Assembly: GCA_964022095.1 (NCBI GenBank)
Contig: CAXHZO010000002.1
Coordinates: 128,001 to 192,000 of the forward strand
Source: an uncultured Arcobacteraceae bacterium
Lineage (GTDB): Bacteria; Campylobacterota; Campylobacteria; Campylobacterales; Arcobacteraceae
Reading direction: 5' to 3'
DNA length: 64,000 bases
Shown here: positions 3,456 through 36,296 of the stretch, in pieces
How the letters are laid out: each line of letters begins with the position of its first letter
How positions within the stretch are numbered: position 1 is the first letter of the stretch
Made by a program: the position numbers and the translations under genes
The notes under the pieces: generated by a model
Databases searched by the model: none
Told to the model about the DNA's origin: nothing
Seen by the model: only the letters and a program-made list of their open reading frames with translations

Positions 3456-4577
3456 TTAGTTGATATTTTTGAAAAGACTTTTAATTGATGTTGGCTTTTG
3501 CTCGCTTACATCGGTTTTCATGATTTTTTTTGCTTCTTTATCAATAGAAGTTTCAACTTTTTTTTGTTTTGTATAACTTTTTGGAACACCTCTATTTGCA
3601 TTTATACTATTTACGTGACTGTTATAGTTTGTAGAAAACTTATGAAGTCCAGTTCTATTATCTCTCACAAAGTATAGGTATTTACTTTTTACAGGGAAGA
3701 TTGCTGCTTTAATGGCATTTAAACTTACAGCACAAACAGGATTTTTTGGAAGACCTGTATATTTGTAAGTATTATAAGAAGTTTTATCCTCATCAATTCT
3801 TTTTGCTGTTACTTTTTGGTGCGAATACTTTCCATAGTTTAACGTTCCATCCATTTGAAGTTTCATTCCACGTCTTAATCTATTGTGAATAACACTTGAA
3901 ACAATTGGCATTTCATCTTCATTTGCAGCTTCTTTTTGTATTACAGATGCTAAACTTAAATAATAGTACCATTTTTTCTTATCATAGTATCCGAAAATCT
4001 TTTTGGAAAACTTTTCATATCTTTTATTTGATTGTGATAATAAATAGAAAATTAAATGATCTTCTTTCATTCCATATGGTAATGAGTATGTGTCTGCTAA
4101 TATATTTCCATCAGCTTTATATGCATATTTATCATAGATTACTTTTAGTTTTTCTTCTGATAAATTAAATTCTTTTGCTAATTGTTTTAAAAATACATAG
4201 GAAGTTTCACCTGGAATTAAAGTGATAGTTTTTAATGCAGCTTTAGATGTTGTAAGCTTATACAAAAAATCCATTTTTGTAAGTTCATTGTCTTCAATGT
4301 TGATCCAACCACTTTGAATGTAACCTAAAAATCTTAAAACTACATTATCAATAATATTCATATCATAACCATTTTTGTTTAGGTAAGATATGGTATCATT
4401 TGTAGTGCCTTTAGGAATAAATAAAACTTTTGTAGAGTTTACTGGCATAGTAATATAAAATAGTATAACAATACTACAAACAAGGATAAACTCCGTAATG
4501 CTAAAGACTACTAAACTTTTATTAGTTTTACTTTTTTTAATCTTAATATCTTCAATTTCACTACTGTTTTCAGGCAT
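3456..4577 (-). CDS. mltG: Endolytic transglycosylase MltG (YceG family)
   Basis: N-terminal TM; LASVIQKEA, VIHNRL..GMKLQMDG, YNTYKYTGLP, YLYFV motifs. Confidence 0.93.
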   Translation of the reverse strand: MPENSSEIEDIKIKKSKTNKSLVVFSITEFILVCSIVILFYITMPVNSTKVLFIPKGTTNDTISYLNKNGYDMNIIDNVVLRFLGYIQSGWINIEDNELTKMDFLYKLTTSKAALKTITLIPGETSYVFLKQLAKEFNLSEEKLKVIYDKYAYKADGNILADTYSLPYGMKEDHLIFYLLSQSNKRYEKFSKKIFGYYDKKKWYYYLSLASVIQKEAANEDEMPIVSSVIHNRLRRGMKLQMDGTLNYGKYSHQKVTAKRIDEDKTSYNTYKYTGLPKNPVCAVSLNAIKAAIFPVKSKYLYFVRDNRTGLHKFSTNYNSHVNSINANRGVPKSYTKQKKVETSIDKEAKKIMKTDVSEQKPTSIKSLFKNIN

Positions 4578-7425
4578 AAAAATAGACTCTTTCTCTTTGG
4601 GTAATTTTTCAGTTTCGCAATTTTATATAAAATTGGATAAAAAGCTTATTGTAGATGTTGAAAAAATAACTTATAAATCAAAAAAGTCACAAGCTGTTAG
4701 CTCCTTTGAGGATATAAAAAAAGATATTGAACTTTTACCAAAAATATTAAAAATCTTCGAAAGAATCAATGTTGAGCGTTTAGTTATAGATGGAAATGCT
4801 TTTACATTACAATTAAATGAGCACAATGTTTATTTAGATAATAAACTTATAAATATATCTTCTAAAATTGATATTTCATCAAACCAAGTTGTTTTAGATC
4901 TATATTCTTTATACTTAAAAGATATAAATTTACTTCTTTTAGGAAAAGTAAAAATTGATTACTTTAATGAAAAAGTAAACTATTATGGATCTTATAAAAA
5001 AGATGATTTAGCAGGTAATATTAAAGTAGATGCTACAAAAGATTTAATGAATTTTTATTTAGATTCTCAAGCTTTTAAGAGTTTAAAGTTTTTAAAACAA
5101 TATTTCAGATTAGATAATATTGCTGAATCATGGATGTATGATAATGTTCAAGGTGATATAAAATTAAAAGAGTTTTACGGAAGCTTTGATATTAAAAACA
5201 ATAAGATTTTATTTGATAGTTTAAAGGGTAATGCTACTATTGACAATGCAAAAATAAAATTTCATAAAAATGTTAATGCAATTGATACAAAAAGTATAGA
5301 TTTAAATTATGACAAAGATACTTTAACATTTACTTTAAATGAACCAAAATATAAAAACATTCCAATGACTGGAAGTAATGTTGTTATTCGTAATTTAACA
5401 AGTGAAAAAAATGGTGAAGTCGAAATTAATATAAAAGCAAAAGCTAGATTAAATAATGATGTTCATCAAATATTAAAAGCTTATAATATAAATATTCCTT
5501 TAGTTCAAAAATCTGGAACTACAAATGCTAATTTAAAATTAATTTTTCCATATTTAAGTTCAAAAAAAATGACTACAAAAGGTTCTTTTGATGTTAAAAA
5601 TGCCAATGTATTAATAAATAAATTTGAATTTTTCTCAAAAAGTGCAAAGGTACAGCTTGATGGGTCTATAGTAAATATTAAAAAAGCAAGTTTCAAACAT
5701 AAAAAAATGATTGATGCAGTTGTTGATATGAGCTTAGATGTGAAAACATTAAAAGCAAAAGGTAATACTTATATAAACTCTTTTTTCATAGCAAATGAAG
5801 ATGAAATTGTAAATGTAAAAAAATTTAGAACACCAATATCTTTTGATTTTAATGAAAAAGTAGAAATAGATTTAGATAAATTAAAAACAAATGTTTTAAT
5901 AAATGATTTAATTTATGTAGATATAAAAGATTTATCTATTTTATATCCGTATTCAAAGCTGTTAAAAGATAATTCTTTAAAAGCAGGAAATTTAAAGTTA
6001 AATATAAAAGATGAAAACAATATATCTTTTAAAGGTAATGTTTCTGGTTTAAACTATCCAATATCAAAAAACTCTAAAAATATTACAAGTTTAAGTTTAA
6101 ACGGTACTATAAAAAATAGTGGTTTTTTAATTAATTCAACAGATGGTTTAATAAAATTAGAAAAACAAAACGACAAAACTATGAATATATCCTTAAAAGA
6201 TATTGACATAAATTTAAAAGACCAATCTTCATCAAATAATCAAGTCTTCCCAAAAATAGATGTTAGTTTAAATAACTCAAAATTAATACTGCCAGATGAT
6301 ACGTATAATTTATATAAGGCAAAAGCAAAAATCAATCCAAATATAATCTACTTTGATGCGACAGTTATAGATCTTGATATCCCTTTACAAAAAAATGCAA
6401 AGAAAGTAAGTTCTTTAGATGTAAAAGGAAACTATACGAAAAAGAAAACAGAACTTTATACATACAATAATGATATTAATTTGATTATACAAAATGATGA
6501 TATTTCTATTGATTTAAATGGCTATGATATATTATACAATAGTGAAGATAGTAGCGATGAAGATAGTAAAAAAGATTTTAACTTAACAGCTAAAAATTCA
6601 ACAATTATTATGAATGATAAATATAAGTTTTTATCTGATGCTTTAGAGATAAGATTAAGAGAAAATACAAAATTTTTACACCTAAATTATAAAGATAGTG
6701 ACATTACATTTAAAGAATCAAAAGATAAAGTTATTGATATTTTTGCAAGTGATATTAAAAGTGAATTTATCAATGCAATTTTTAATAAAAAGATTCTAGA
6801 TGGTGGTAAGTTTATGTTCTTAGCTAAAGGAACAATAGATAATCTTGAAGGAAAAATAATTATTGAAAACAGTAAGGTTGAAGATTTAGCTATTTTAAAC
6901 AACCTTTTACTATTTATTCACACAAGTCCTGCATTAATAAACCCATTTTTAGCTATTCCATCTGTTGTTGGAATGGCTACAAATGGTGGCTTTGATTTAA
7001 ATGGTTATAAAATCACAAATGGAAATATAAATTTTAACTATAGTAAAAGTAAAGAAAGTCTAAAAATAAAAAAACTAGTAACAGTAGGAAACGGTATTGA
7101 TTTTGATGGTTCAGGAGATATAAATTTAAAAGATATGTCTTTAGATTCAAAGATAAAACTAATTTTCTTAAAAGATTACTCTAATATTGTTGGGTCTATT
7201 CCTATTTTAAATTATGTTGTTTTGGGTGATGATAATAGAGTGGAAACAGAAGTTGATGTTTTTGGAGCATTAAATAACCCTAAAATTACTACAAACTTAA
7301 CTAAAGATACATTTAGCGTACCTTTAAATATCGCTAAAAGAGTATTACAAAGTCCTGCAAGATTATTAGAGTTTTTAAAAGGAAAAGAAGAGAATACAAA
7401 GCCAATAAATAAGCCTAAAGAATAG
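4498..7425 (+). CDS. AsmA-like/YhdP-family (DUF3971) envelope protein
   Basis: 975 aa, N-terminal signal anchor, beta-rich body, AsmA-like C-terminus (GSIPILNYVVLG...VFGALNNPKI). Confidence 0.8.
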   Translation: MLKTTKLLLVLLFLILISSISLLFSGIKIDSFSLGNFSVSQFYIKLDKKLIVDVEKITYKSKKSQAVSSFEDIKKDIELLPKILKIFERINVERLVIDGNAFTLQLNEHNVYLDNKLINISSKIDISSNQVVLDLYSLYLKDINLLLLGKVKIDYFNEKVNYYGSYKKDDLAGNIKVDATKDLMNFYLDSQAFKSLKFLKQYFRLDNIAESWMYDNVQGDIKLKEFYGSFDIKNNKILFDSLKGNATIDNAKIKFHKNVNAIDTKSIDLNYDKDTLTFTLNEPKYKNIPMTGSNVVIRNLTSEKNGEVEINIKAKARLNNDVHQILKAYNINIPLVQKSGTTNANLKLIFPYLSSKKMTTKGSFDVKNANVLINKFEFFSKSAKVQLDGSIVNIKKASFKHKKMIDAVVDMSLDVKTLKAKGNTYINSFFIANEDEIVNVKKFRTPISFDFNEKVEIDLDKLKTNVLINDLIYVDIKDLSILYPYSKLLKDNSLKAGNLKLNIKDENNISFKGNVSGLNYPISKNSKNITSLSLNGTIKNSGFLINSTDGLIKLEKQNDKTMNISLKDIDINLKDQSSSNNQVFPKIDVSLNNSKLILPDDTYNLYKAKAKINPNIIYFDATVIDLDIPLQKNAKKVSSLDVKGNYTKKKTELYTYNNDINLIIQNDDISIDLNGYDILYNSEDSSDEDSKKDFNLTAKNSTIIMNDKYKFLSDALEIRLRENTKFLHLNYKDSDITFKESKDKVIDIFASDIKSEFINAIFNKKILDGGKFMFLAKGTIDNLEGKIIIENSKVEDLAILNNLLLFIHTSPALINPFLAIPSVVGMATNGGFDLNGYKITNGNINFNYSKSKESLKIKKLVTVGNGIDFDGSGDINLKDMSLDSKIKLIFLKDYSNIVGSIPILNYVVLGDDNRVETEVDVFGALNNPKITTNLTKDTFSVPLNIAKRVLQSPARLLEFLKGKEENTKPINKPKE

Positions 7426-23830: not shown

Positions 23831-24346
23831 GTGATAATATTAGATTTTGAGACAAACAGTGGAAATATAGGTGATGTTTTAGAAGTAGCAGCTGTAAAGT
23901 GTGATACTAATTTTAATGTACTTGATAAGTTTCATAGATACTACTTATCTAGACATCCAATTAATTATTACTCATATGCAGTACATAGACTAACACCAGA
24001 ATTAATATTAGATTATAGAAAAGACAAAGAGTATGTAACATACTTCACAGAAGATGAAGAGTTCGAGCAGTTTTGTTCTGGAGCTAAAACATTAGTAGCT
24101 CATAATATAAACTTCGAATTACGACATATAAATAATCGTGTAAGATTTCAAAATCATATATGTACTATGAAAGAGAATAGAACTACAGTAAATGTATATG
24201 GAAAAAATGGAAAATTAAAAAATCCAAAGTTAGATGAAACATGTGCATATTATGGAATAGATTTTGAAGCTGACAAGTATCACAGTGCTACATATGATGT
24301 AACTAAAACCTATGAAATACTAAAAAGAATGAATATAAAATTATAA
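23831..24346 (+). CDS. DEDDh 3'-5' exonuclease (DnaQ/RNase T family)
   Basis: LDFET, VAHNINFE, HSATYD motifs; GTG start. Confidence 0.9.
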   Translation: MIILDFETNSGNIGDVLEVAAVKCDTNFNVLDKFHRYYLSRHPINYYSYAVHRLTPELILDYRKDKEYVTYFTEDEEFEQFCSGAKTLVAHNINFELRHINNRVRFQNHICTMKENRTTVNVYGKNGKLKNPKLDETCAYYGIDFEADKYHSATYDVTKTYEILKRMNIKL

Positions 24347-24349
24347 ATT

Positions 24350-24401
24350 CCTATAAACTGCTAGAATTTACCTACAAGATAAAGTTATTTTGTCATAAAA
24401 T
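24350..24401 (+). promoter_or_regulatory. Putative LytTR-type operator and promoter of the photolyase operon
   Basis: CCTATAAACTG-N10-CCTAC (21-bp periodic repeat) and TAAAAT at 24396; same layout at 31328-31377. Confidence 0.65.
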
Positions 24402-24418
24402 AAAAGAAAAAAGGGTTT

Positions 24419-25378
24419 ATGATGAAAATAGGAGTATCTTCGTGTCTAATAGGAAATAAAGTTAGATATGATGGAATGAATGCAAACGATAAATTTATAG
24501 CAAACATACTGTCAAAGTATTTTGAACTAATCCCTTATTGTCCAGAAACAACTATATGGGGAAGTCCACGAGAAGCTATAAGACTTGTGGAGAATGAACA
24601 GGGAGAGGTAAAAGTAGTAACATCTACTAAAAATCCAGTTGAAGTAACAAAACAACTTCAAGACATTTCTTCTACAACTGCACAAGAAGCAGGGGAAGAT
24701 GAACTATGTGGATTTATACTAAAATCAGCATCTCCAACTTGTGGATTAGAAAGAGTTAAAGTATACAAACCTTTAAATGCTCCAAGTGAGAAAAAAGGGG
24801 TAGGGCTATTTGCAGCTGAACTTAAAAAAAGATATCCATACTTACCAATGGAAGAAGAGGGAAGACTAAATGACCCTTGGCTTAGAGAAAATTTCTTAAT
24901 GCAAACATTTGCTTATGCAGACTTACATGAGTTTTTAAAAACAAATCCAAGTTTTAATGACCTAGTAGTATTTCATACCTCATATAAATACCTAATATAT
25001 GCAAAAGCAGAGAGTGCATATAAAACACTTGGTCATATAGTAGCAAACCATGAAAAAAAAGAACTAGAAGAGGTATTAAAAGAGTATAAAGAAGAGTTCT
25101 TAAAGGCTATTAATTTAAAAGGAAGTGTTAAAAAGACATATAATGTACTACTACATATATATGGATACTTCAAAAGAGATATTACAAGTGATGAAAAAGA
25201 GCATGTACTTTCAACACTAGAAGAGTATAAAGAAAAAATCATACCACTAATTGCAGTTATGAAGATAATCAACCTTTATGCAAAAAGATTTGATGTACAG
25301 TATCTAAAAGTTCAAAAATTCTTAAATCCATATCCAAAAGAATTGGCATTAAGAAGTGATGTGAGAGCGTACAAGTAA
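24419..25378 (+). CDS. DUF523 (TudS-like desulfidase) + DUF1722 fusion, YbgA/RudS family
   Basis: GVSSCLIG..VRYDG, CPE, KSASPTCG, EEEGRL..LRENF, FHTSYKY, NVLLHIYGYFK, FLNPYP. Confidence 0.9.
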   Translation: MMKIGVSSCLIGNKVRYDGMNANDKFIANILSKYFELIPYCPETTIWGSPREAIRLVENEQGEVKVVTSTKNPVEVTKQLQDISSTTAQEAGEDELCGFILKSASPTCGLERVKVYKPLNAPSEKKGVGLFAAELKKRYPYLPMEEEGRLNDPWLRENFLMQTFAYADLHEFLKTNPSFNDLVVFHTSYKYLIYAKAESAYKTLGHIVANHEKKELEEVLKEYKEEFLKAINLKGSVKKTYNVLLHIYGYFKRDITSDEKEHVLSTLEEYKEKIIPLIAVMKIINLYAKRFDVQYLKVQKFLNPYPKELALRSDVRAYK

Positions 25379-25379
25379 C

Positions 25380-26735
25380 ATGAAACAAATACTTTGGTTT
25401 AGAAGAGACTTACGAATAAGCGATAGTGAGATATTAACAAATGCTAAGGATGAAGTATTGCCTATATTTATCTTTGATAAGGATATCTTAGGAAAGCTAG
25501 ATATTGATGATAAGAGGGTGACTTTTATATACCAAAGTGTTTTAAAGCTAAAAGAGGATTTAAAATCTATTGGGCTTGATTTAGCAATATTTTATTCAAC
25601 TCCTGTTGAGGTGTTTAGAAGCTTACAAAAAGAGGGTTTCGATGAGGTATTATCTAGTATTGATTATGAACAATACTCTATAAGAAGAGATAATCAAATA
25701 GAGCAAATAGTAACAATGAGAAGATTTTTAGACTCATTTATTCTAAAACCAAACACACATACAAAGAAAGATAAAACTCCCTATAAAGTATTTACACCAT
25801 TTTACAAAGCATTAAATTATATATGGGAGAGTGAATCTTTAGATGAGTTTGAAACTCCAAAAAACCTGAAGAAAATAGAGTTTAACTATGATGTAATTCC
25901 AAGTTTAGAAGAAATGGGCTTTGAAAAACAAGAACTCCCAGAATTTTTAACTAAAAGTGCAGATGAGTTGATAGATGATTTTTCACAAAAAATATCTGAA
26001 TATCAAGAATCTAGAGACTTTTTTTATAAAGATGGAACATCAAATATGGGAGTTCACTTGCGTTTTGGGCTTATTAGTCCAAGACAAGTTTTTAATAAAA
26101 TCAAAACTTTAAGAGCTCCTCAAGGTCAAAAAGATTTTTATATAAGAGAGCTTTTTTGGAGAGAATTTTACAACTATATTTTATTTCATTTTCCAAAAAG
26201 TGAAACTCAAAACTTCAATGGCATAGAAGTAAAGTGGAGAAATGATAAAGAAGAGTTCAAAGCTTGGTGTGAAGGAAACACAGGTGTTCCTATAATAGAT
26301 GCTTCAATGAGACATTTTAATGCAACAGGAACTATGCATAACCGTCTAAGAATGATAGTTGCTTCATACTTAACCAAAAACTTGCTAATTGATTGGAAGT
26401 GGGGAGAGAAGTATTTTGCTTCTAAGTTACTTGATTATGAAGCAAGTTCAAATATAGGTTCTTGGCAATGGGGAGCTAGTACAGGTGCTGATTCAGTGCC
26501 TTATTTTAGAGTTTTTAACCCATATTTACAATCTGCAAAATTTGATAAAGAAGCTAAATTTATAAAATCAGTCATACCTGAACTTGAACATATAGAACCA
26601 AAACTTATTCATACTGAAGGTGGGGTTCAAAGCAATTTATTTGTGGATTATCCTCAAACTTTAGTTTCTATTTCTTTTTCAAGGGATAGAGTTATAAGTG
26701 AGTTTAAAAGAGCAAATATAGAGAGTAAGAGATGA
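25380..26735 (+). CDS. phrB: Deoxyribodipyrimidine photolyase
   Basis: WFRRDLR, HLRFGLISPR, ELFWREF, TGVPIIDASMR, MHNRLRMI, GSWQW, RVFNP. Confidence 0.95.
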   Translation: MKQILWFRRDLRISDSEILTNAKDEVLPIFIFDKDILGKLDIDDKRVTFIYQSVLKLKEDLKSIGLDLAIFYSTPVEVFRSLQKEGFDEVLSSIDYEQYSIRRDNQIEQIVTMRRFLDSFILKPNTHTKKDKTPYKVFTPFYKALNYIWESESLDEFETPKNLKKIEFNYDVIPSLEEMGFEKQELPEFLTKSADELIDDFSQKISEYQESRDFFYKDGTSNMGVHLRFGLISPRQVFNKIKTLRAPQGQKDFYIRELFWREFYNYILFHFPKSETQNFNGIEVKWRNDKEEFKAWCEGNTGVPIIDASMRHFNATGTMHNRLRMIVASYLTKNLLIDWKWGEKYFASKLLDYEASSNIGSWQWGASTGADSVPYFRVFNPYLQSAKFDKEAKFIKSVIPELEHIEPKLIHTEGGVQSNLFVDYPQTLVSISFSRDRVISEFKRANIESKR

Positions 26736-28147
26736 GAAATGTAGACATAGCAGTAGTTGGAAGTGGAATAGGTGGAAGCTTAATATCTGCCTTAAATAGT
26801 CACAAAGATATATTACTATTTGAAAAAGATCATAATCTTGGTGGATGTGCAAGTACATTTAAAAGATTTGGCCATAGATTCAATACTGGTGCTACTACGT
26901 TTGTAGGATATGAAGATAATCATATTATAAAAAATATGTTTGATAAGATAGGATTAAAACCAGATATTGTTCAAAGTGATATCGCAATAAGAAATATACA
27001 AGGAAATAAAAAAGTAGATAGAATTCAAAACTTTGAATCATTTTTAACACAAGTAAATGAAAACTATTACCACCCAAACAACAGAGTTTTTTGGAAAACA
27101 ATCAAAGATATAGATGAAAGGTTTTGGAAGCTTAGATTTGTGTATTTTTCAAAGTACTCTTTGAAGTCATTTTTTAAATCATCACTTTTTATAGCTGAAC
27201 TTTTAAAAGAGTTTAAAACAGATTTATTAGTAAGTGCAGAGGGCTTTATAAACTCAACTTTGCCAAATATTTCAAAAGAGTATAAGGCTTTTATAAATTC
27301 ACAACTACTAATAACTCTACAAACTACATCAAAAAATGCAACACTTTTATCTATGAGTTTAGGACTTGCGTATCCTTTTCATAAAGTATTTTATGCAAAT
27401 GGTGGAATGGGAAATTTAATAAAAGATATACTAAAAGATGTAGAAGTAAAGAAAAATGAAGAGATAATCTCCATTGAAAAAACATCAAAGCAATATCACA
27501 TAATAACAAGTAAATCAGAATATATGGCAAATAAAGTCATACTAAACTCAACTATCTTTGATAGCGGAAGACTGTTTTTAAATGATGATATAAAATCATA
27601 CTTCAATCAGTTTAGATTTGGTGATCAAAGTGCTTTTGTAGTGTATATGAAACTAAATATTAAACCTGAGCTTATACATCACTATCAGTTTGTTTTAAAA
27701 GATACTATTCCAAACTGTATTTCTAACTCGTTTTTTGTATCATTTAGTGATGTAGCTGATGATAAACTATCAAAAGATGGACTGAGTATTACTATCTCAA
27801 CTCATTCAAAAGCAATATACTGGGAAGGTCTTTCAAAACAACAGTACGATGCTAAAAAACAAGAGACTCAAGAATATATTGTAAAAGAGTTTTTAAAACA
27901 GTTTGATACTATCAAAGCAGAAAATATCAAAGAGTGTTTTAGTGCTACTTCAAAGACTTTTTACAGATATATAAGCCGTGCAAACTGTGGTGGAAAACCA
28001 ATAAATATTAAAAGTGCACTTAGCTTACCTAGCTGTAACACACCCTTTAAAGGTCTTTATAATGTAGGAGATACAGTATTCGCAGGTCAAGGCTGGCCTG
28101 GTGTTGCTCTTGGAGTTGAGATATTAAATAAAGAGATTAATTCATAG
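26732..28147 (+). CDS. FAD-dependent oxidoreductase, phytoene desaturase/CrtD-like family
   Basis: VVGSGIGG, EK..LGGCASTF, FNTGATTFVG, C-terminal GLYNVGDTVFAGQGWPGV. Confidence 0.8.
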   Translation: MRNVDIAVVGSGIGGSLISALNSHKDILLFEKDHNLGGCASTFKRFGHRFNTGATTFVGYEDNHIIKNMFDKIGLKPDIVQSDIAIRNIQGNKKVDRIQNFESFLTQVNENYYHPNNRVFWKTIKDIDERFWKLRFVYFSKYSLKSFFKSSLFIAELLKEFKTDLLVSAEGFINSTLPNISKEYKAFINSQLLITLQTTSKNATLLSMSLGLAYPFHKVFYANGGMGNLIKDILKDVEVKKNEEIISIEKTSKQYHIITSKSEYMANKVILNSTIFDSGRLFLNDDIKSYFNQFRFGDQSAFVVYMKLNIKPELIHHYQFVLKDTIPNCISNSFFVSFSDVADDKLSKDGLSITISTHSKAIYWEGLSKQQYDAKKQETQEYIVKEFLKQFDTIKAENIKECFSATSKTFYRYISRANCGGKPINIKSALSLPSCNTPFKGLYNVGDTVFAGQGWPGVALGVEILNKEINS

Positions 28148-28185
28148 AGATGAAGTTAAGACAAACCACAACATATAACTACATA

Positions 28186-28851
28186 TCAATTAAAATCTAG
28201 AGTTAATATCAAACGCTTTTCATTGGCTAACACTACAGGTGAACGGTGAACTAAGCCCATATTTTCATTACCCTCCCAAAGGGTACCTTTGAGCAATGCA
28301 ACATCGCCACAATTTAATTGTTGGATATCATTTTCACCTTGGTAAAGACCAGATTCACTATCAGATAAGCCGTTACTACCCCATCCAAGTTTTGTGTAAT
28401 CAGCCACCTCATGAGGAAGCCATTGTGTAGCAATACCTTGATAGGTTGTCACAAGACGGCAAGGCACGCTATCTACATGAAATTTAGGGCACATCGTTCG
28501 ATCTAAAACTTTCAAGCGAATGCCTGCTTGTTTAAGTTCAAATAAGTAACAAAACATATCCACAAGTTCAGCAATATCTTCGCTCACTTCAGTCATATTA
28601 TTATCAAAAGATTCGCTAAGACGGGAAAGCGCATTTTGTGGTGTTAAAATCATTTCTTTTTGAAATGCAGGATTCAATGCTAAAAATTCTTTTACCGAAT
28701 ATTGCATAGTAGAAGGTATCTTACGCTGCCAAATGGCTATATTGATTTCTGATTGGTAGATATCACTAAAAATTGTTGGCTGTTTATCCTGTGCCATATG
28801 TCCATAGAATTTAGGCATTTCATTTAGCATCATTTTCCTTTTCACGCTCAT
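28186..28851 (-). CDS. DUF1826 family protein
   Basis: NIAIWQR, MCPKFHVD, RLVTTY.G.ATQW, GDVALLKG, GLVHRSP, RLILTLD. Confidence 0.85.
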   Translation of the reverse strand: MSVKRKMMLNEMPKFYGHMAQDKQPTIFSDIYQSEINIAIWQRKIPSTMQYSVKEFLALNPAFQKEMILTPQNALSRLSESFDNNMTEVSEDIAELVDMFCYLFELKQAGIRLKVLDRTMCPKFHVDSVPCRLVTTYQGIATQWLPHEVADYTKLGWGSNGLSDSESGLYQGENDIQQLNCGDVALLKGTLWEGNENMGLVHRSPVVLANEKRLILTLDFN

Positions 28852-28871
28852 TAAAATATAATAAACAAATT

Positions 28872-28936
28872 AATGCAACTTTGTCGCATTTTATTAGGAA
28901 TTATAATATAAAATATTTAAATGCAACTTAGTTGCA
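28872..28936. promoter_or_regulatory. Two TGCAAC-N3-GTTGCA-type palindromes (candidate Zur-like metal operator)
   Basis: AATGCAACTTTGTCGCATT (28872-28890) and TGCAACTTAGTTGCA (28922-28936) upstream of DUF1826. Confidence 0.6.
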
Positions 28937-29065
28937 GCATATTAAAAAAATCAAAAGAGTAGATTATGGCAGATGGAAAATGTAAAATTTAAGAATATAA
29001 ACAAAGATGGTGATCATTATGACTATGATAATTTATATTTAGAATTTAAATTATCAAAAGTCTAC

Positions 29066-29467
29066 TCAATTTAGCTTATTTACTTCTCTTTTCTCTCTTA
29101 TCCAAGATTTAATACCCTTTTGAAGGTGATATACATTTTTAAAGCCTAGTTGTTTTGATAAAAAGTTACCAACAGTTCCGGTTCTATTTCCCGATCTACA
29201 AACTAATACAAAAGTTTGATTTTTGTCTTTTACTACAGTTGAGAACTCTTTTAGCCAACTTTTAACATCGTATTGACCTTTTTCATTAAAAAACATTATC
29301 TTATTACTTGTAGGAATAGTTCCTAGTTCTTTCCACTCTGGTGGAGTTCTTATATCTATCACTGTGATATTTTTATCAATCATTTCTTGTAGTTGTGTTG
29401 GATTAATTCCTTTGAAATCTGCAAATGCAAAAATTGCTGTTAATAGTATAAAAAATAGTTTTTTCAT
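29066..29467 (-). CDS. Exported rhodanese-like domain protein
   Basis: Signal peptide; VIDIRTPPEW, VCRSGNRT, HLQKGIKSW. Confidence 0.9.
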   Translation of the reverse strand: MKKLFFILLTAIFAFADFKGINPTQLQEMIDKNITVIDIRTPPEWKELGTIPTSNKIMFFNEKGQYDVKSWLKEFSTVVKDKNQTFVLVCRSGNRTGTVGNFLSKQLGFKNVYHLQKGIKSWIREKREVNKLN

Positions 29468-29626
29468 TGTTCACCTTTTTTGTCAAGTTTGTAATATTAC
29501 ACCAAAAAAGTTTAAAGATTTTAATTGAAATAAAATATTTATATCACAAATCGTCAAATAACTTATATTAAATATTTTAAAATTATAGTAAAATAATCAG
29601 ATATAATAAAATCAAAAAGGAACTAA

Positions 29627-30625
29627 ATGCACAGTGTAGAACTAAAAATCACAATAAAAGACTGGCTTTATATAATAACCATTGGTGCTTTATTTGGGTT
29701 TTTTATTTCATTGTTTTTTTATTTTCTAAATGAAAATCTAAGAGAATTTTCAACTATAATTTTTAGTACTAGTACAGCAGTTATTATTTCTCTCTTTGCA
29801 TCATTTTTAATATCAATTTCAAACAATCTTATACTACCAAAAGTGAACAAAAGATTTTGGTATATCGTTAGTTTTATTTTTTCATTTAGTTCTGGTTTTT
29901 TTGGTTCGGTGTTTAGTTTTGTGATTTTTTCTTATACAGATTTTAGAATCGTACACTATATAAATGATTATTGGTTCTACATAAGTGTTACTATAGGGTT
30001 CCTAACTTTTTTAGTTGGATTAATTTTACATCAGTTTATTTCTATGAAGTATAAAAACGAATCAATAAAAACTGAGATTTTAGAAACAAGATTAAGAGCA
30101 TTAGAAAACGAACTAAATCCTCACTTTTTATTCAACGCTTTAAATTCAGTTAGTGAGTTAGTATATGTGGACCAAAAGAAAGCAGAATCTGCAATCTTAC
30201 ATATCTCAAAGTTTTTGAGAAACGCTATAAATAAAGAGAGCCTAATACCTTTAGAAACAGAACTTTCAATGGTTCAAACATATGTAAATATTGAAAATAT
30301 AAGATTTACGCAAAGAGTTGTATTATCAGTTGAAGTTGTAGAAGAGATGAAAAAAAGAGAAATACCAAAATTCTCAATTCAACTATTAGTAGAAAATGCC
30401 ATCAAACATGGTTTCATAAATGAAAAACTACATATAGACATCAAAGTTTATAAAGATATAATAATCGTACAAAATGACGGAAAAATATCACAAGACTTGA
30501 AGTTTGGTACAGGATTATCAAATCTTAAAAAAAGACTAGAAATTCAAAATGTAGGAAAACTTTCATATCTAAGTGAAGATAATAAAATGAAATTTATAAT
30601 TAAGTTAAATAAAGGAAACAAATGA
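29627..30625 (+). CDS. LytS/YehU-type sensor histidine kinase
   Basis: About 4 TMs; LNPHFLFNALN, IQLLVENAIKHG, GTGLSNL. Confidence 0.92.
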   Translation: MHSVELKITIKDWLYIITIGALFGFFISLFFYFLNENLREFSTIIFSTSTAVIISLFASFLISISNNLILPKVNKRFWYIVSFIFSFSSGFFGSVFSFVIFSYTDFRIVHYINDYWFYISVTIGFLTFLVGLILHQFISMKYKNESIKTEILETRLRALENELNPHFLFNALNSVSELVYVDQKKAESAILHISKFLRNAINKESLIPLETELSMVQTYVNIENIRFTQRVVLSVEVVEEMKKREIPKFSIQLLVENAIKHGFINEKLHIDIKVYKDIIIVQNDGKISQDLKFGTGLSNLKKRLEIQNVGKLSYLSEDNKMKFIIKLNKGNK

Positions 30626-31332
30626 AAGTATTAATAGTAGACGATGAGTCTTTAGCAATAAGCAGACTTACAAGACTTCTAAATGAAATAGGAATAAACG
30701 ATATCACATCTTTTGAAGATCCTTTATTAGCACTAAAAGATATTACAAAAAATAAATACGACGCAGTATTTTTAGATATATCAATGCCAAATATGACAGG
30801 ATTAGAACTTGCTGATAGTATTATTCAGTTTGAGCCGAAGACTTTTATAGTGTTTCAAACAGCTTATGAAGAGTATGCTTTAGAGGCTTTTAAAAAAGGT
30901 GGATTAGGTTATTTAGTAAAACCTTTTGAGTTAGATGACTTAAAAGCAGTTATTGAAAAAATAAAAACTTTTCAAGATAGTGCTGAAGTTGAGACTAAAA
31001 AGATTTTAGGGAAAAGAGGAGATAAACTATATTTAATCGATTTAGATGATATTTTTTATATAAAAGCAGACCTTGATGAAGTTATTATCAAAATTAAAGA
31101 TGCAGATGCATATGTAAGAAGAAAAATAGGAGACTTAGAGACTTTATTACAAAACAAAAATTTCTTTAGAGTTCATAGATCATACATAGTAAATGTAGAT
31201 AAAATCAAATCAATGAAAAGTATTGAGCAATCAAAACTTCAAATCTCTTTTGATGGAATTAGTGAAATAGTAACTAGTTCAAAAGATGGAGCAAAAGAGT
31301 TTAGAGAGTATCTAGATAGAAGAAGTTTATAA
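30622..31332 (+). CDS. LytTR-family response regulator
   Basis: IVDDE, FLDISMP, YLVKP; LytTR motif FFRVHRSYIVN. Confidence 0.95.
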   Translation: MKVLIVDDESLAISRLTRLLNEIGINDITSFEDPLLALKDITKNKYDAVFLDISMPNMTGLELADSIIQFEPKTFIVFQTAYEEYALEAFKKGGLGYLVKPFELDDLKAVIEKIKTFQDSAEVETKKILGKRGDKLYLIDLDDIFYIKADLDEVIIKIKDADAYVRRKIGDLETLLQNKNFFRVHRSYIVNVDKIKSMKSIEQSKLQISFDGISEIVTSSKDGAKEFREYLDRRSL

Positions 31333-31377
31333 ACTGACAAAATAATCCTACTAAAAAGCCATCTTTTCTCGTAAAAT
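31328..31377 (+). promoter_or_regulatory. Putative LytTR-type operator and promoter of SRPBCC-hemH
   Basis: TATAAACTG-N10-CCTAC-N20-TAAAAT, spacing identical to 24352-24401. Confidence 0.65.
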
Positions 31378-31413
31378 TCTTCTAGTATAAAATATTTCGT
31401 ACGAGGAGAAGAT

Positions 31414-31863
31414 GTGCAGACATTTATCAAAAGTTCATATATTAAGTGTGACATACAAACCCTTTTTGATTTTCACTTAGACACAAATAACTTGAAACAC
31501 ATCACTCCAAGCGATACCAAAGTAGAGCTACTAACTAAAGATTACGTACCTAAGCAGTCAAAAATTTTAGATATAAAAAGTACGAAGTATTTTATACCAA
31601 TGTTATGGAAAGTAAAAATAGAAACATTAGATGAACCTAACCTTTTAGTTGACATCGCATTAAAGTCCCCTTTTAAATATTGGGAACACAAACATATATT
31701 TATTCAGCACAAAGATAGATGTGAACTAAAAGATGTGATAACTTATGAATTACCTTTTGGAATAATTGGAAAGTTTTTTGATTTTATTATAAAAAGAGAT
31801 TTACAAAACATGTTTGATTTTAGACATAAAGCTACAAAAGAAATATTAGAGAAAAAGGACTAA
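31414..31863 (+). CDS. SRPBCC family protein
   Basis: FDFH...NL..ITP, PFKYWEHKH.F, D.ITYELPFG, MFDFRH; GTG start with AGGAG RBS. Confidence 0.85.
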   Translation: MQTFIKSSYIKCDIQTLFDFHLDTNNLKHITPSDTKVELLTKDYVPKQSKILDIKSTKYFIPMLWKVKIETLDEPNLLVDIALKSPFKYWEHKHIFIQHKDRCELKDVITYELPFGIIGKFFDFIIKRDLQNMFDFRHKATKEILEKKD

Positions 31864-31864
31864 A

Positions 31865-32803
31865 TTGAAAAGAGCAATTATACTTATGAATATGGGTGGA
31901 CCAAATAACCTTGATGAAGTTAGAGTTTTTTTACATAATATGTTTAATGACAAGTATATTATTGGTGCACCACAACCAATAAGAGCAATGATTGCTAAAT
32001 TTATAATTTTTAAAAGAATAGATGAAGCTCAAGGTAATTATAAATTATTAGGTGGAATGTCTCCAATCGTTGGCCATACCAAAAGATTAGTAAGAAGACT
32101 TGCAAGAGTTGTTGATGCTGATGTTTTCCACGAAATGAGATATACACCACCATTTGCTGCTACAGTTTTAGAAAAAGTAAAAGATTATGATGAAATATAC
32201 GCTATTCCTATGTATCCACACTATTCAAGTACAACTACAAAATCTTCTTATGAAGATTTATTAAAAAATGCAAAGAAACTAGGAATAGACACTAATAAAT
32301 TTAAAACTATCGATAAATATTATGATAATACACTATACAACAAAGCGATAGTTGAAAGAATAAAAGAAGCACTCAAAGGTGAAGACTCAAAAGAGTTTGA
32401 GCTTGTGTTTTCGGCACATGGTTTAACACAAAGAACAATTGATAAAGGCGATCCTTATCAAAAGCATATTTTAGCAAATGTAGAGTTTGCAAAAAAAGAG
32501 CTAGCAGAACAAGGAATTGCTTTTAAAAAGATTCATGTTGCATACCAATCAAGACTAGGGCCATTAGAGTGGTTGAGACCATATATGGAAGATAAATTAA
32601 AAGAGATAAAATCAAAAGTAATTATCTATCCTATATCATTTACAGTTGATAATTCAGAGACAGAATTTGAGCTAGATATTGAGTATAAAGAAGTAGCAGA
32701 TGAATTAGGAATAAAAGATTATAGAGTTGCAAAAACTCCTAATCATCATCCAAGTTTTTTAGCAGCCTTAAAAGGTATCTATGAGGACATGAAAGCCTCA
32801 TAA
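31865..32803 (+). CDS. hemH: Ferrochelatase
   Basis: LMNMGGP, MRYTPP, PMYPHYSSTT, FSAHGL, YQSRLGPLEWL.P, DNSETEFELD. Confidence 0.96.
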   Translation: MKRAIILMNMGGPNNLDEVRVFLHNMFNDKYIIGAPQPIRAMIAKFIIFKRIDEAQGNYKLLGGMSPIVGHTKRLVRRLARVVDADVFHEMRYTPPFAATVLEKVKDYDEIYAIPMYPHYSSTTTKSSYEDLLKNAKKLGIDTNKFKTIDKYYDNTLYNKAIVERIKEALKGEDSKEFELVFSAHGLTQRTIDKGDPYQKHILANVEFAKKELAEQGIAFKKIHVAYQSRLGPLEWLRPYMEDKLKEIKSKVIIYPISFTVDNSETEFELDIEYKEVADELGIKDYRVAKTPNHHPSFLAALKGIYEDMKAS

Positions 32804-33382
32804 ATCAAGATATATATCAACATCATTGATAGTATCTATATCAATTGATTGTTTCTTACTTAATACAACATTTGTGCAAGGATTATTTTTAAGAATCTTC
32901 TTTGCACCTTTGTCTTTATTTAATTTTATTAATTCATTATAATAGTTTTTAGGAAAAATAGCAGGAACGCTTGATTCACTTATATGTTCATATTTTGAAG
33001 CAATTATAGTTTTATTATCTATATTATCTTTTAATTGTTTTATATGCTCTTGTGTTATAAAAGGTTGATCACAAAGTAAGATTAAAGTATTTTCATACTC
33101 AATAGTATGCTTTATTCCAAAAGATATAGATGAACCTATTCCTTTTTCATAATTTTTATTGAACAAGATAGTTACATTAAAGTGTTTTATCTCTTTTTCA
33201 CAAGTTTCTCTCTTATGTCCAAGTACTACAAAAACATCCTTTGAAACACTCAGGGCTTTTTTTATAGAAGTTTCTAAAAATGTCTCACCATCTATTTTTA
33301 AAAGTTGCTTTGTAATACTTCCAAGACGTGAAGACTTACCCGCTGCTAGTATAATTACTGCTAGTTTTTTAGATTTTGCCAT
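32798..33382 (-). CDS. Molybdenum cofactor cytidylyltransferase (MocA-like nucleotidyltransferase)
   Basis: ILAAGKSSRLG, LCDQP, DKGAK, DIDT; likely start MAKSKK at 33382; within Mo-hydroxylase cluster. Confidence 0.85.
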   Translation of the reverse strand: MAKSKKLAVIILAAGKSSRLGSITKQLLKIDGETFLETSIKKALSVSKDVFVVLGHKRETCEKEIKHFNVTILFNKNYEKGIGSSISFGIKHTIEYENTLILLCDQPFITQEHIKQLKDNIDNKTIIASKYEHISESSVPAIFPKNYYNELIKLNKDKGAKKILKNNPCTNVVLSKKQSIDIDTINDVDIYLDL

Positions 33383-34154: not shown

Positions 34155-36296
34155 TTATCCTAGTTTAATAGGAAACTTTGTATATCTTTTCCCTGTTGCA
34201 TCGTGAAGTGCATTCATTATTGCTGCAAACATTGGAGGAACACCAACTTCACCTATACCACCTACTTTTTCACTAGAATTGATAATCTCAACATTGATAC
34301 TTTCAGGAGCATCTGTTATTCTATTTACTTTATAGTCATAGAAGTTGTTTTGATTTACTGCACCGTTTGTAAGTGTGATTTCACTATATTTTGTATACCC
34401 AATAGTAAAATTAACTGCACTTTCGATTTGATTTTCTACATTTAATGGGTTAAATGCATATCCACAATCAACAGCTGACCAAACGTGTTGTACTTTGTAG
34501 TCATTGTCTTCAACTTTTACTTTTACAACCATTGCAACTATACTTCCAAAAGACTCTGCAATAGCTACACCATAACCACTATTTTTTTCTCTTTTATACC
34601 AGTTAGATTGTTTTGCTACATTTTTAAGAAGATTTACAAATCTTGGGTTTTCTAAGTTTTTTATTCTAAAATCAAGTGGATCCATATCAACAGAATACGC
34701 AGCTTGATCAATGATATTTTCAACAATCGGAGCAGAAGTTGTGTGTCCAACAGATCTTAGCCAGTCAACTGTTACTGGGCTTTGAGGACAAAATGATTTA
34801 ATATCATGACTTGCTACAGTATATGGATGGTTATCTAAACCTTCTCTTTGAAGTGCATCAATTCCATCTTTAAACATAAAGGCTTCAAAAGGTGTACCTT
34901 GAGTTAAAGATTGGTTTACAAGATTTGATTTAAGTGCTGTAATTTTACCTTCTTTATCAACTGCAATTTTTGCACTACTAATTGTAAGTGGTCTAAAACT
35001 TCCACCTTTTACATCATCTTCTCTTGTCCATAACATCATTACTGGCCATGGCTCATCTTTAGCTGTATAAGCTGCATCAACTATGAAATCAGAGTTTGGA
35101 GTTGATCTTCTACCAAAACTACCACCTAAATAGTTTGTATAGTACTCAATATTTTCAGGATTTACTCCTAAAATCTTCGCACAAGTACCTCTATATAAAG
35201 TTTGTAATTGACCACCAACAGACATATAAGCTTTATCACCTTTATGGTGAATTGTACAGTTTAATGGCTCCATAGCAGCATGTGCTAAGAATGGAAAGTA
35301 ATAATCAGCTTCTTCAATTTTATATGCATTATCAAATGCTTTTTTTGTATCACCATCACTTCTCATGACTTTCATATCTTTTTCGTAGTGAGCTTTATAC
35401 TCTTTTTCTAAATCAGCATCACTGATTTTTGCGAACTCACCTAAATCCCAATCAACTTTTACTTTTTCTATAGCTTGTTTTGCTTGGTACCATCTATCTG
35501 AAAAGATTGCAATTTTATTGTTTGGTAGTTGTTTGATTTTTATAATACCTGGCATCTTTTTAGCTTCTGTGTCATCATAGCTTTTTATTTTTGCACCAAA
35601 TACTTTTGGATGAATAATCGCAGCATATTTCATATCAGGAAGTCTAACATCAATACCAAAAATACCTTTACCAGTTAATTTTTCATTTACTTCGATTGGA
35701 TGTCTTTTCATTGGCTTACCAATTAGTGTGTATTCACTCGATTTCTTTAGTTTAACATCACTTGGAAGTTCCATTTTTTTTATATCTTCAATTAAACTAC
35801 CATACGATAGTTTCTCTTTTGTTCTTTTGTTTATTACAAATGAGTCTTTTGTTTCAATATCATATAATCTTACTTGCCATTTTTTAGCTGCTGCTTGTTT
35901 AAGCATTAATCTTAATGTTGCACCAACTTTTCTAACTCTTTGTTGTTGAGTCTTAATACTCATAGAACCGCCAGTTAACATCATAGGCATTCCAGGGATA
36001 TTATATACAGCTTTTACAGGAGCTGGTTCAAAAATGATTTCATCCCATGCTGCATCTAATTCATCAGCTATACACATAGCCATAGTTGAATATGTACCTT
36101 GTCCCATTTCTACTTGACCAAGTATAAATGTAATAGTGTTATCTTTATCAATTTTGATAAATGCATTTGGTTCTATAACTTCTGGTTTCTTTTCAACTTT
36201 TGCGGCCATTCCTTTTATAGGGATATTAAAACCAATAACAAAAGCTGAACCTAATAGCGTACTATTTTTTATAAATTCTCTTCTATTTGAATTCAT
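34155..36296 (-). CDS. Xanthine dehydrogenase-family molybdopterin subunit (IorB/aldehyde oxidoreductase-like), Tat-exported
   Basis: SNRREFIK twin-arginine signal; EMGQG, TGGS, AHAAMEP, GGSFGRR, GGIGEVGVPP. Confidence 0.92.
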   Translation of the reverse strand: MNSNRREFIKNSTLLGSAFVIGFNIPIKGMAAKVEKKPEVIEPNAFIKIDKDNTITFILGQVEMGQGTYSTMAMCIADELDAAWDEIIFEPAPVKAVYNIPGMPMMLTGGSMSIKTQQQRVRKVGATLRLMLKQAAAKKWQVRLYDIETKDSFVINKRTKEKLSYGSLIEDIKKMELPSDVKLKKSSEYTLIGKPMKRHPIEVNEKLTGKGIFGIDVRLPDMKYAAIIHPKVFGAKIKSYDDTEAKKMPGIIKIKQLPNNKIAIFSDRWYQAKQAIEKVKVDWDLGEFAKISDADLEKEYKAHYEKDMKVMRSDGDTKKAFDNAYKIEEADYYFPFLAHAAMEPLNCTIHHKGDKAYMSVGGQLQTLYRGTCAKILGVNPENIEYYTNYLGGSFGRRSTPNSDFIVDAAYTAKDEPWPVMMLWTREDDVKGGSFRPLTISSAKIAVDKEGKITALKSNLVNQSLTQGTPFEAFMFKDGIDALQREGLDNHPYTVASHDIKSFCPQSPVTVDWLRSVGHTTSAPIVENIIDQAAYSVDMDPLDFRIKNLENPRFVNLLKNVAKQSNWYKREKNSGYGVAIAESFGSIVAMVVKVKVEDNDYKVQHVWSAVDCGYAFNPLNVENQIESAVNFTIGYTKYSEITLTNGAVNQNNFYDYKVNRITDAPESINVEIINSSEKVGGIGEVGVPPMFAAIMNALHDATGKRYTKFPIKLG

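Follow-up and report, generated by a model that had tools for sequence, protein, structure and literature searches.

To our knowledge, only a few regulator types sense light damage in non-photosynthetic bacteria, namely the extracytoplasmic function (ECF) sigma/anti-sigma system with ChrR, the MerR/B12 regulators LitR and CarH, and LOV/BLUF proteins. LitR/CarH-type regulators are one-component proteins of the MerR family, some of them B12-dependent. In Escherichia coli, a DUF523/DUF1722 gene lies directly 5' of the photolyase gene in the ybgA-phr operon, for which we know of no linked two-component system or comparable operator. Here we analyse a stretch of 64,000 nucleotides (nt) from an uncultured Arcobacteraceae bacterium (contig CAXHZO010000002.1, positions 128,001–192,000; hereafter the window), in which a DUF523/DUF1722 gene also directly precedes a photolyase gene and two promoters of the same layout, P1 and P2, enclose a membrane histidine kinase and a LytTR response regulator. 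The two promoter sites belong to a motif that is conserved at a fixed position 5' of a recurring gene set and is inherited together with the kinase–regulator pair across phyla.

The gene set resembles the SigmaE-ChrR (ECF11) regulon of Rhodobacter sphaeroides, which, as described in PMC7380195 and PMC6852236, includes photolyase, an operon of amine-oxidase-like desaturase, DUF1365 and cfa-like genes, short-chain dehydrogenases/reductases (SDRs) and lipocalin; there, too, the regulator genes lie within their own regulon, and a tie between a lipid-modifying enzyme and signalling has been proposed. The first two products of the Rhodobacter RSP1091-1087 operon are given as the furan-fatty-acid enzymes UfaD and UfaO (PMC7380195), and furan fatty acids are proposed as a signal in the sigmaE-ChrR system (PMC6852236). 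The blue-light response of Vibrio cholerae induces light-damage genes, photolyases included, as a set (PMC5241685), and the present case resembles such MerR/LitR/CarH and ChrR responses in having this kind of gene set in non-photosynthetic hosts. The signalling proteins are of the kind found in LytS/LytTR-type systems (BtsS/BtsR, YpdA/YpdB, LytS/LytR and AgrC/AgrA), with a PF06580 kinase core and a regulator composed of receiver and LytTR domains. In its passages on binding sites, PMC4847170 ascribes to LytTR regulators two repeats of 9–11 nt with spacers of 11–13 nt and no common sequence; the promoter-proximal repeat of AgrA is centred near −60 (PMC4227749), and the LytS-type kinase BtsS is described as using its membrane domain to sense a small molecule (PMC10653868).

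The original prediction claimed a common layout for the two promoters, and exact twins were found: TATAAACTG-N10-CCTAC-N20-TAAAAT occurs at 24352–24401 (P1) and 31328–31377 (P2), both on the + strand, with no third exact copy in the window. With up to two mismatches, the 14-base core matched the window three times, at the two exact sites and, with two mismatches, within a gene at 34955 (shuffle mean 0.49). The full 20-base layout with up to three mismatches matched twice, where 0.04 matches were expected, and in none of 100 shuffles did two matches arise. This shuffle test is post hoc, the pattern having been derived from the same two sites, so the weight of the argument rests on conservation in relatives. 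In an ungapped comparison of P1 and P2, TTTTnTCnTAAAAT (TTTTnTCn) directly 5' of the −10 element is common to both, and elsewhere outside the motif the regions are unrelated. The P2 site overlaps the TAA stop codon of the regulator gene (31330–31332), a point absent from the original prediction.

Relatives were collected by a search of genome contigs with the response regulator, taking 10-kb flanks, and 35 loci (L001 to L035) were confirmed among 152 candidate stretches. Represented among them are Arcobacteraceae, Sulfurovum, Sulfurospirillum, Thiovulum, Thermodesulfovibrio (Nitrospirota) and Thermodesulfobacteriota, the last with three genera; the best match is 72% identical, so the window's own species is not among the loci. 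The literal pattern and a slightly relaxed regular expression matched no promoter in the 35 loci, so a profile was needed. A 34-column profile, trained by expectation-maximisation on 16 DUF523-upstream and 22 regulator-downstream regions, gave 51 matches of at least 18 bits in 533,990 bp of the 35 loci, searched on both strands, compared with 0, 1, 0, 0, 1, 0, 0, 0, 0 and 0 matches in ten Markov-simulated sets. Twenty-one of the 51 lie outside the training regions (Table 1), including copies in Thermodesulfovibrio (AGAATTAACTTACAAAAAAAGCCTACAAAAAGAC; L027–L030, 18.1–27.0 bits), a different phylum in which the regulator is only 44–47% identical. A stricter control profile, trained on the 16 DUF523-upstream regions only and applied at a threshold of at least 16 bits, yielded 40 matches, 23 of them outside training (regulator-downstream, hemH and thiD promoters, and L028–L030), against 0–4 in simulated sets. 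Weaker matches at promoter positions (11–16.5 bits) were found for hemH and a DUF2805-pdxH-SRPBCC-radical SAM operon in L005 and for the CrtD-like gene in L026 and L012. Conservation at orthologous promoters, on which the original prediction had staked its case, was thus found 5' of the DUF523/phr operons and 3' of the regulator in most Arcobacteraceae, Sulfurovum and Sulfurospirillum loci. The expected occurrence 5' of phr-, cfa- and hemH-like genes was seen as well, with hemH in nine loci, the CMAS(cfa) operon in L015 and DPRP photolyase-like genes in L011 and L013. We regard the motif as almost certainly a functional cis-element.

Two variants of the site were noted. In the DUF523 promoters of L001 and L002 (around 5194–5230), the units are apparently one base closer (AAACGTACAT-N6-CTACAAACA), so that the main profile gives only about 11 bits there; the second profile scores the same promoters at 17.7–19.0 bits in another register. 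In L033 (Thermodesulfobacterium), at about 6180–6215 and 5' of the methyltransferase gene, a CTGACAAAAACAGGAACCAAAGAAC stretch, a CTGACA...AACCAAAG look-alike, resembles a diverged operator and scores under the profile threshold.

The degenerate consensus in the relatives is TAtaAAcTnACA, 21 bp on TACaAAaaanC, and after a further 17 nt TAnAAT. Among 49 unique sites, the distal unit reads T2 A3 T4 a A6 A7 C8 T9 n A11 C12 A13 (columns 2–13) and the proximal unit T23 A24 C25 a A27 A28 a a a n C33 (columns 23–34), with TAnAAT as the −10 element at a fixed distance (columns 46–51). The proximal TACaAA coincides with the position of the −35 hexamer, with a 17-nt spacer, and is identical to TTGACA at 3 of 6 positions. 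A downstream gene was called for 50 of the 51 matches (at the regulator-downstream site of L016 the contig ends before any), and in 49 of these 50 the site starts 58–88 nt 5' of a same-strand start codon, the exception lying at 155 nt; in 13 loci the gene that comes first behind the motif is DUF523. The 21-bp repeat proposed for the window holds, with TATAAA at 24352/31328 and TACAAG/TACTAA at 24373/31349, and the self-similarity of the family profile peaks at an offset of 21, with 13 in second place. We also considered reading the motif as an ECF-type promoter (AAC, 12 nt, CTAC) but rejected this, relative to what we take to be the ECF consensus, on account of the spacing and the TAnAAT −10 element.

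The minus-strand distal units had been matched to the 9-mer [TA][AC][CA]GTTN[AG][TG], presumably an AgrA-like LytTR box, and they do read TCAGTTTAT (9/9) and GCAGTTTAT (8/9); the consensus is not diagnostic, however, and the proximal units do not match it. This agreement carries little weight because LytTR regulators have a common site architecture and not a common sequence (PMC4847170). The architecture itself fits at the sequence level: as in LytTR systems, two repeat units of about 21-bp period (columns 2–13 and 23–34) lie beside the promoter (PMC4847170), and the targets directly adjoin the system. Unlike in AgrA, whose proximal repeat lies near −60 (PMC4227749), the proximal repeat here is on the −35 position, so the placement of the present motif is tighter.

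At a threshold of at least 14 bits, the profile found P1 (15.6 bits), P2 (33.9 bits) and one site at 4452 (15.0 bits) in the window; P2 still scored 31.4 bits with the profile trained on DUF523-upstream regions, without regulator-downstream sequence. The weak match at 4452–4485 is directly 5' of a YhdP-like gene at 4498 and is probably due to chance. A second −10-like element, TATAAAAT at 31386–31393, 8 nt past the first P2 −10 element, is kept in the orthologous promoters of L001 and L002, and the SRPBCC-hemH promoter may thus have a second start site. A generic sigma-70 and terminator scan of 24000–33000 was uninformative (51 promoter-like sites against 49.3 expected).

Table 1 Features of the window between 23831 and 32803, and motif sites outside the training regions in related loci.
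Feature	Position or loci	Strand	Basis or remark
RNase_T exonuclease	23831-24346		Pfam
P1 distal repeat unit (TATAAACTGCTA)	24352..24363	+	Profile columns 2-13; at columns 11-12 departs from ...ACA of the family
P1 proximal repeat unit (TACAAGATAAAG), at -35 hexamer position	24373..24384	+	21 bp 3' of distal unit, 17 nt 5' of -10
P1 -10 element TAAAAT	24396..24401	+	Predicted; columns 46-51 = TAnAAT in 49 unique sites
DUF523+DUF1722 gene, 2-thiouracil desulfurase-like, YbgA-like	24419-25378	+	Pfam
[quoted passage not shown]
CrtD-like flavin adenine dinucleotide (FAD) oxidoreductase ('AmOx')	26732-28147	+	Pfam NAD_binding_8/Amino_oxidase
Insert: DUF1826 (28186-28851) and rhodanese (29066-29467)	28186-29467	-	Pfam
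Histidine kinase: four transmembrane segments, then PF06580 and ATPase domain	29627-30625	+	Pfam, hydropathy
Response regulator, receiver and LytTR DNA-binding domain	30622-31332	+	Pfam
P2 distal repeat unit (TATAAACTGACA)	31328..31339	+	Overlaps regulator stop codon
P2 proximal repeat unit (TACTAAAAAGCC), at -35 position	31349..31360	+	
P2 -10 element TAAAAT	31372..31377	+	Predicted
SRPBCC (Polyketide_cyc) gene, GTG start	31414-31863	+	Pfam
Ferrochelatase hemH	31865-32803	+	Pfam; TIGR00109 254.7 bits, over cut-off 124.6
Site 5' of hemH	L003, L004, L006, L008, L009, L010, L011, L013, L014		Outside training
Site 5' of thiD	L007, L012		Outside training
Site 5' of NMT1/THI5 gene	L007		Outside training
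Site 5' of small open reading frame (ORF)-UbiB kinase pair	L005		Outside training
Site 5' of DPRP photolyase-like [(6-4)-photolyase-like]-radical SAM-DUF4130 operon	L011, L013		Outside training
Two copies	L015		Outside training
Site 5' of methyltransferase-CrtD-like-kinase-regulator operon	Thermodesulfovibrio L027-L030		Outside training

The genes named earlier at both promoters, and the LytTR pair between them, agree with the Pfam assignments in Table 1. NCBIfam photolyase models hit the window photolyase at scores under their cut-offs, and the SRPBCC orthologues of L001 and L002 have a start position identical to that of the window gene. According to tblastn with the window proteins, DUF523, phr, CrtD-like, kinase and regulator genes form one same-strand cluster in 12 loci (L001, L002, L004, L006, L008, L009, L014–L016 and L018–L020), and the frame is preserved in four variants: L003 has hemH-phr-..., L005 has hemH-CrtD-like-..., L010 lacks the CrtD-like gene, and L011 and L013 lack phr. 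In 25 of the 35 loci (Thiovulum, Thermodesulfovibrio, Caldimicrobium and Thermodesulfobacterium included), the CrtD-like, kinase and regulator genes are contiguous, the first directly 5' of the second; 7 of these loci belong to Thiovulum, to an unclassified Campylobacterota metagenome-assembled genome (MAG) and to the distant phyla. In the remaining 10 loci, the contig ends (L007, L017, L023 and L025), the gene is absent (L010, L022 and L031) or fragmented (L029), or the arrangement is unrelated (L034 and L035). At 8181–9013 in L029, a Thermodesulfovibrio MAG, the CrtD-like gene is present as ORFs of 170 and 85 amino acids (aa), representing a pseudogene or an assembly error.

The window is the odd one out, since a 1.5-kb minus-strand segment with the DUF1826 and rhodanese genes parts the CrtD-like gene from the kinase gene. 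This segment is found between the two genes in none of the 25 loci that have both, and the GC content of its DUF1826 part is 0.36–0.41, whereas that of the window is 27%. The absence from the relatives and the higher GC content suggest, at the level of sequence, a recent insertion that split an ancestral operon, and the split accounts for a window pair without its own motif. The pair presumably depends on its own promoter within 29468–29626. In the 5' region of DUF1826 (28858–28944), a 39-nt unit occurs twice, 48 bp apart and 72% identical, and each copy contains a near-palindrome, ATGCAAC-N4-GTYGCA, possibly the operator of an unrelated regulator.

In the kinase, hydropathy places transmembrane segments at about residues 12–35, 41–71, 80–102 and 115–140, with short loops, and these precede a PF06580 domain (expect value (E) 4.5e-22) and an ATPase domain; in this catalytic part, H166, N257, G285 and G296 are invariant in 31 sequences. 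A sequence search matched the kinase to the histidine kinase of PDB entry 6swj (E 1.8e-12). Neither 5TM-LYT (PF07694), GAF nor photoreceptor domains, nor any other sensor domain, were found in the kinase by Pfam and hydropathy, as the original prediction had said of photoreceptor domains. Its name for the two proteins, a LytS/LytTR pair, is apt for a PF06580 kinase with a receiver–LytTR regulator, but the kinase is not LytS proper, having just four transmembrane segments without 5TM-LYT or GAF. In degree of conservation the membrane part equals the catalytic part, and N66, W78, G90 and G124 are invariant. Searched alone against 1.84 billion representatives, the membrane part gave 51 matches at E ≤ 1e-3, of which 27 reached 1e-10 and 4 reached 1e-30; the near-full-length matches are proteins of 272–350 aa with the domain at the N terminus, and the others are shorter fragments. 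Judged by its sequence, the sensor is therefore a rare and fixed architecture, and unlike in LytS/LytTR systems the four-helix domain forms a small family of its own.

The regulator contains PF00072 (E 8.9e-25) and PF04397 (E 5.2e-22), with D52 within an FLDISMP motif, and the catalytic residues are kept in both kinase and regulator. Orthology of the regulator to BtsR or LytR was rejected, as both NCBIfam scores are well under the cut-offs (120.5 bits against 246 for BtsR, 104.9 bits against 375 for LytR); its PDB sequence matches cover the receiver domain only.

The model of the CrtD-like protein has a predicted local distance difference test score (pLDDT) of 91.2, and its best PDB fold is 4rep, a gamma-carotenoid desaturase (template modelling score (TM) 0.77, E 2e-25); no PDB sequence matched it at E ≤ 0.001. 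It scored 126 bits against desat_CrtD TIGR02733 (cut-off 549.7), and carotenoid-isomerase models also remained under their cut-offs. This flavoprotein therefore probably desaturates or isomerises a lipophilic substrate. The 471-aa protein is distinct from the 417-aa UfaD-like amine oxidase encoded in L015; identity with UfaD is unsupported for the kinase-adjacent protein, and the UfaD/UfaO-like pair is encoded in a separate operon in L015. Among 5391 candidates (longer kinase homologues), 1062 proteins matched the kinase at E ≤ 0.001, and none of the best 120 carries PF01593 or PF13450, a weak negative for a fusion of CrtD-like protein and kinase.

Regulon membership was assigned to genes in same-strand runs headed by the motif, with nested runs counted twice. 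The families headed in this way are DUF523/DUF1722, phr, CrtD-like, kinase, regulator, hemH, SRPBCC and a YfcH-type epimerase with DUF1731, together with EAL protein, lipocalin, UbiB-type kinase, thiD, thiE, NMT1, DPRP and DUF2805, radical SAM proteins TIGR03916 and TIGR03915, and a 404-aa methyltransferase. In L015 (10741–17584, − strand), two motif copies head SDR-SnoaL-MFS and lipocalin-amine oxidase (417 aa)-DUF1365-CMAS-DUF3833, and this lipid cluster has the same genes as the Rhodobacter operon RSP1091-1087, which PMC7380195 places under sigmaE-ChrR control. In the distant phyla, the neighbours again include a photolyase family, UvdE, SDR-DUF2867 and EAL. This content, photo-damage genes and not a transporter, holin or quorum locus as in LytS/LytTR systems, points to ultraviolet (UV)/blue-light or photo-oxidative stress as the condition.

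Thiamine genes (hydroxymethylpyrimidine phosphate kinase, thiamine monophosphate synthase and THI5-like; thiD/thiE/NMT1) lie behind the motif in L003, L005, L007, L012 and L021. The pyridoxamine-phosphate oxidase gene pdxH lies behind a weaker 16.5-bit copy in L005 and in the same cluster in L020, where no site was found 5' of pdxH. The presence of thiamine and B6 genes in motif-headed runs suggests replacement of photolabile cofactors within the response. An EAL protein of about 356 aa, similar to cyclic di-GMP phosphodiesterases and with a 110-aa N terminus without family, is encoded 3' of the regulator gene or within the cluster in L010–L014, L020, L032 and L033, in two phyla; in L033 its gene is split into two ORFs.

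Unlike SigmaE-ChrR, the present system has no ECF sigma/anti-sigma pair, its −10 element is TAnAAT and its regulator is a phosphorelay. Sigma and anti-sigma domains were absent from the 61 window ORFs scanned with Pfam, and MerR-type or B12-binding regulators, hence the LitR/CarH type, from the window ORFs scanned likewise (45 further ORFs beyond the locus genes). None of these types is present among the gene clusters common to at least three loci, singleton ORFs being only partly annotated, and the only other recurrent regulator family in clusters of at least three loci is an OmpR-type pair (4 loci).

We consider it probable, taking the explanation as a whole, that the two window sites are operators of a conserved regulon that the LytTR regulator activates in response to a photo-oxidative cue received by the membrane kinase. 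The operator would be a direct repeat of about 11-nt units with a 21-bp period. Its most likely binder is the LytTR regulator, which, phosphorylated and dimeric, would occupy both units and switch on promoters with a good −10 element but no −35 element, the proximal unit taking the −35 position. The kinase would receive the cue through its conserved four-helix membrane domain, its only candidate sensor, much as BtsS is described to sense through its membrane domain (PMC10653868). As kinase and regulator belong to their own regulon in most genomes, positive autoregulation would follow. The sensed condition would be UV/blue-light and photo-oxidative damage, probably reported by a membrane lipid or porphyrin-derived cue and not by a chromophore domain. 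The CrtD-like gene is a nearly constant neighbour and, taken with the proposal that furan fatty acids act as second messengers for ChrR, suggests, speculatively, a lipid-derived signal. Comparative genomics supports the role of the pair in the regulon, as originally predicted, through the 12 same-strand clusters and the motif before the Thermodesulfovibrio pair; binding by the regulator, activation and light stress as the signal are inferred.

Several observations weigh against this explanation. P1 as an entire site is a weak match to the family profile. No motif of at least 14 bits lies in the 5' region of the window pair, so autoregulation would have been lost in the window, and none of at least 11 bits lies at promoter positions in the Thermodesulfobacteriota loci L031–L033. 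The runner-up offset of 13 leaves the exact boundaries of the repeat units open. Kinase and regulator occur without the CrtD-like gene in L010, L022 and L031. The loci were fetched by the regulator, so the proximity of regulator and motif arises partly by construction. With a site that covers the −35 position, repression would be just as conceivable. Lastly, as the kinase has no photoreceptor domain, only the regulon content points to light, and it is uncertain how far some of the carriers, which are anaerobic thermophiles, meet light.

The last of these points bears on a possible alternative, to which we give well under even chances, in which the regulon is real and run by the pair in response to another cue, such as oxidative stress in general, stress on membrane lipids, an imbalance of haem or porphyrin, or a metabolite produced by the CrtD-like protein. 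Such a cue would agree with a kinase that has no photoreceptor domain, with the anaerobic thermophiles among the carriers and with the small-molecule sensing of BtsS (PMC10653868), and hemH, UbiB, thiamine and B6 genes are not specific to light. However, photolyase-family genes (phr, DPRP, a second photolyase family and UvdE) are the most constant companions, distant phyla included, and the gene set mirrors the singlet-oxygen and blue-light regulons described in PMC6852236 and PMC5241685.

That the regulator is instead a repressor, which occludes the −35 region until a signal lifts repression, we consider rather unlikely. The overlap of the proximal unit with the −35 position would allow it, and Campylobacterota promoters are said to need little −35 information. 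Yet TACaAA is a poor −35 element, like those of activator-dependent promoters, kinase and regulator within the operon fit positive feedback, and characterised LytTR response regulators such as AgrA and YpdB are described as activating from repeats upstream of the promoter (PMC4227749, PMC4847170).

It is unlikely that another, unlinked regulator or alternative sigma factor reads the motif and that the kinase–regulator pair is merely a member of the regulon. A proximal unit exactly at −35 with a 17-nt spacer would suit a sigma-specific −35 element, the search itself brought regulator and motif together in part, and the window pair is without a motif. Against this stand the ordinary TAnAAT −10 element, the second conserved unit 21 bp upstream, which fits a dimeric factor, and the lack of sigma, anti-sigma and MerR/B12 regulators within the scope given above; moreover, the motif stays with the pair in a different phylum (L027–L030), where an unlinked factor would have to be common too. 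Chance resemblance, or a recent local duplication without regulatory meaning, can practically be discounted: A/T-rich words recur in a 27% GC genome and the pattern was defined post hoc, but no shuffle gave two matches, similarity ends outside the motif, and the motif is kept at orthologous and additional promoters in many genera.

As far as the original reader knew, the system was undescribed, and our full-text searches, with subscription-only literature outside their scope, likewise found no link of LytTR/LytS systems to photolyase, singlet-oxygen or ferrochelatase regulons. In our view the locus encodes a LytTR two-component system whose sensor domain is new and which probably controls a type of regulon known from other regulator classes; it adds a candidate phosphorelay with a membrane-only sensor to the regulators of light damage. 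It supplies a defined operator and a predicted regulon that extends from photorepair of DNA and haem completion to lipid modification and the salvage of cofactors, as well as a rule by which about 50 kinase clusters and their neighbours of unknown function (DUF523/DUF1722, SRPBCC, YfcH and DUF2805) can be annotated. It also gives a direct way into the question of which molecule reports singlet-oxygen or photo-oxidative stress in a membrane, and its spread across phyla suggests a mobile module. Tentatively, and with considerable doubt, we suggest that an undescribed two-component family (a kinase with a rare four-helix domain as its only sensor, a LytTR regulator and a CrtD-like flavoprotein that is nearly always encoded beside them) may govern protection against UV/blue light and singlet oxygen, as the master switch of the regulon, in Campylobacterota, Nitrospirota and Thermodesulfobacteriota that are not phototrophic. 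With no chromophore domain, it would detect in the membrane a photo-oxidised lipid or olefin made by the flavoprotein, aided in the thermophiles by the 404-aa methyltransferase. If true, such lipid or olefin sensing would carry over to a phosphorelay what has been put forward for sigmaE-ChrR with furan fatty acids as second messengers.

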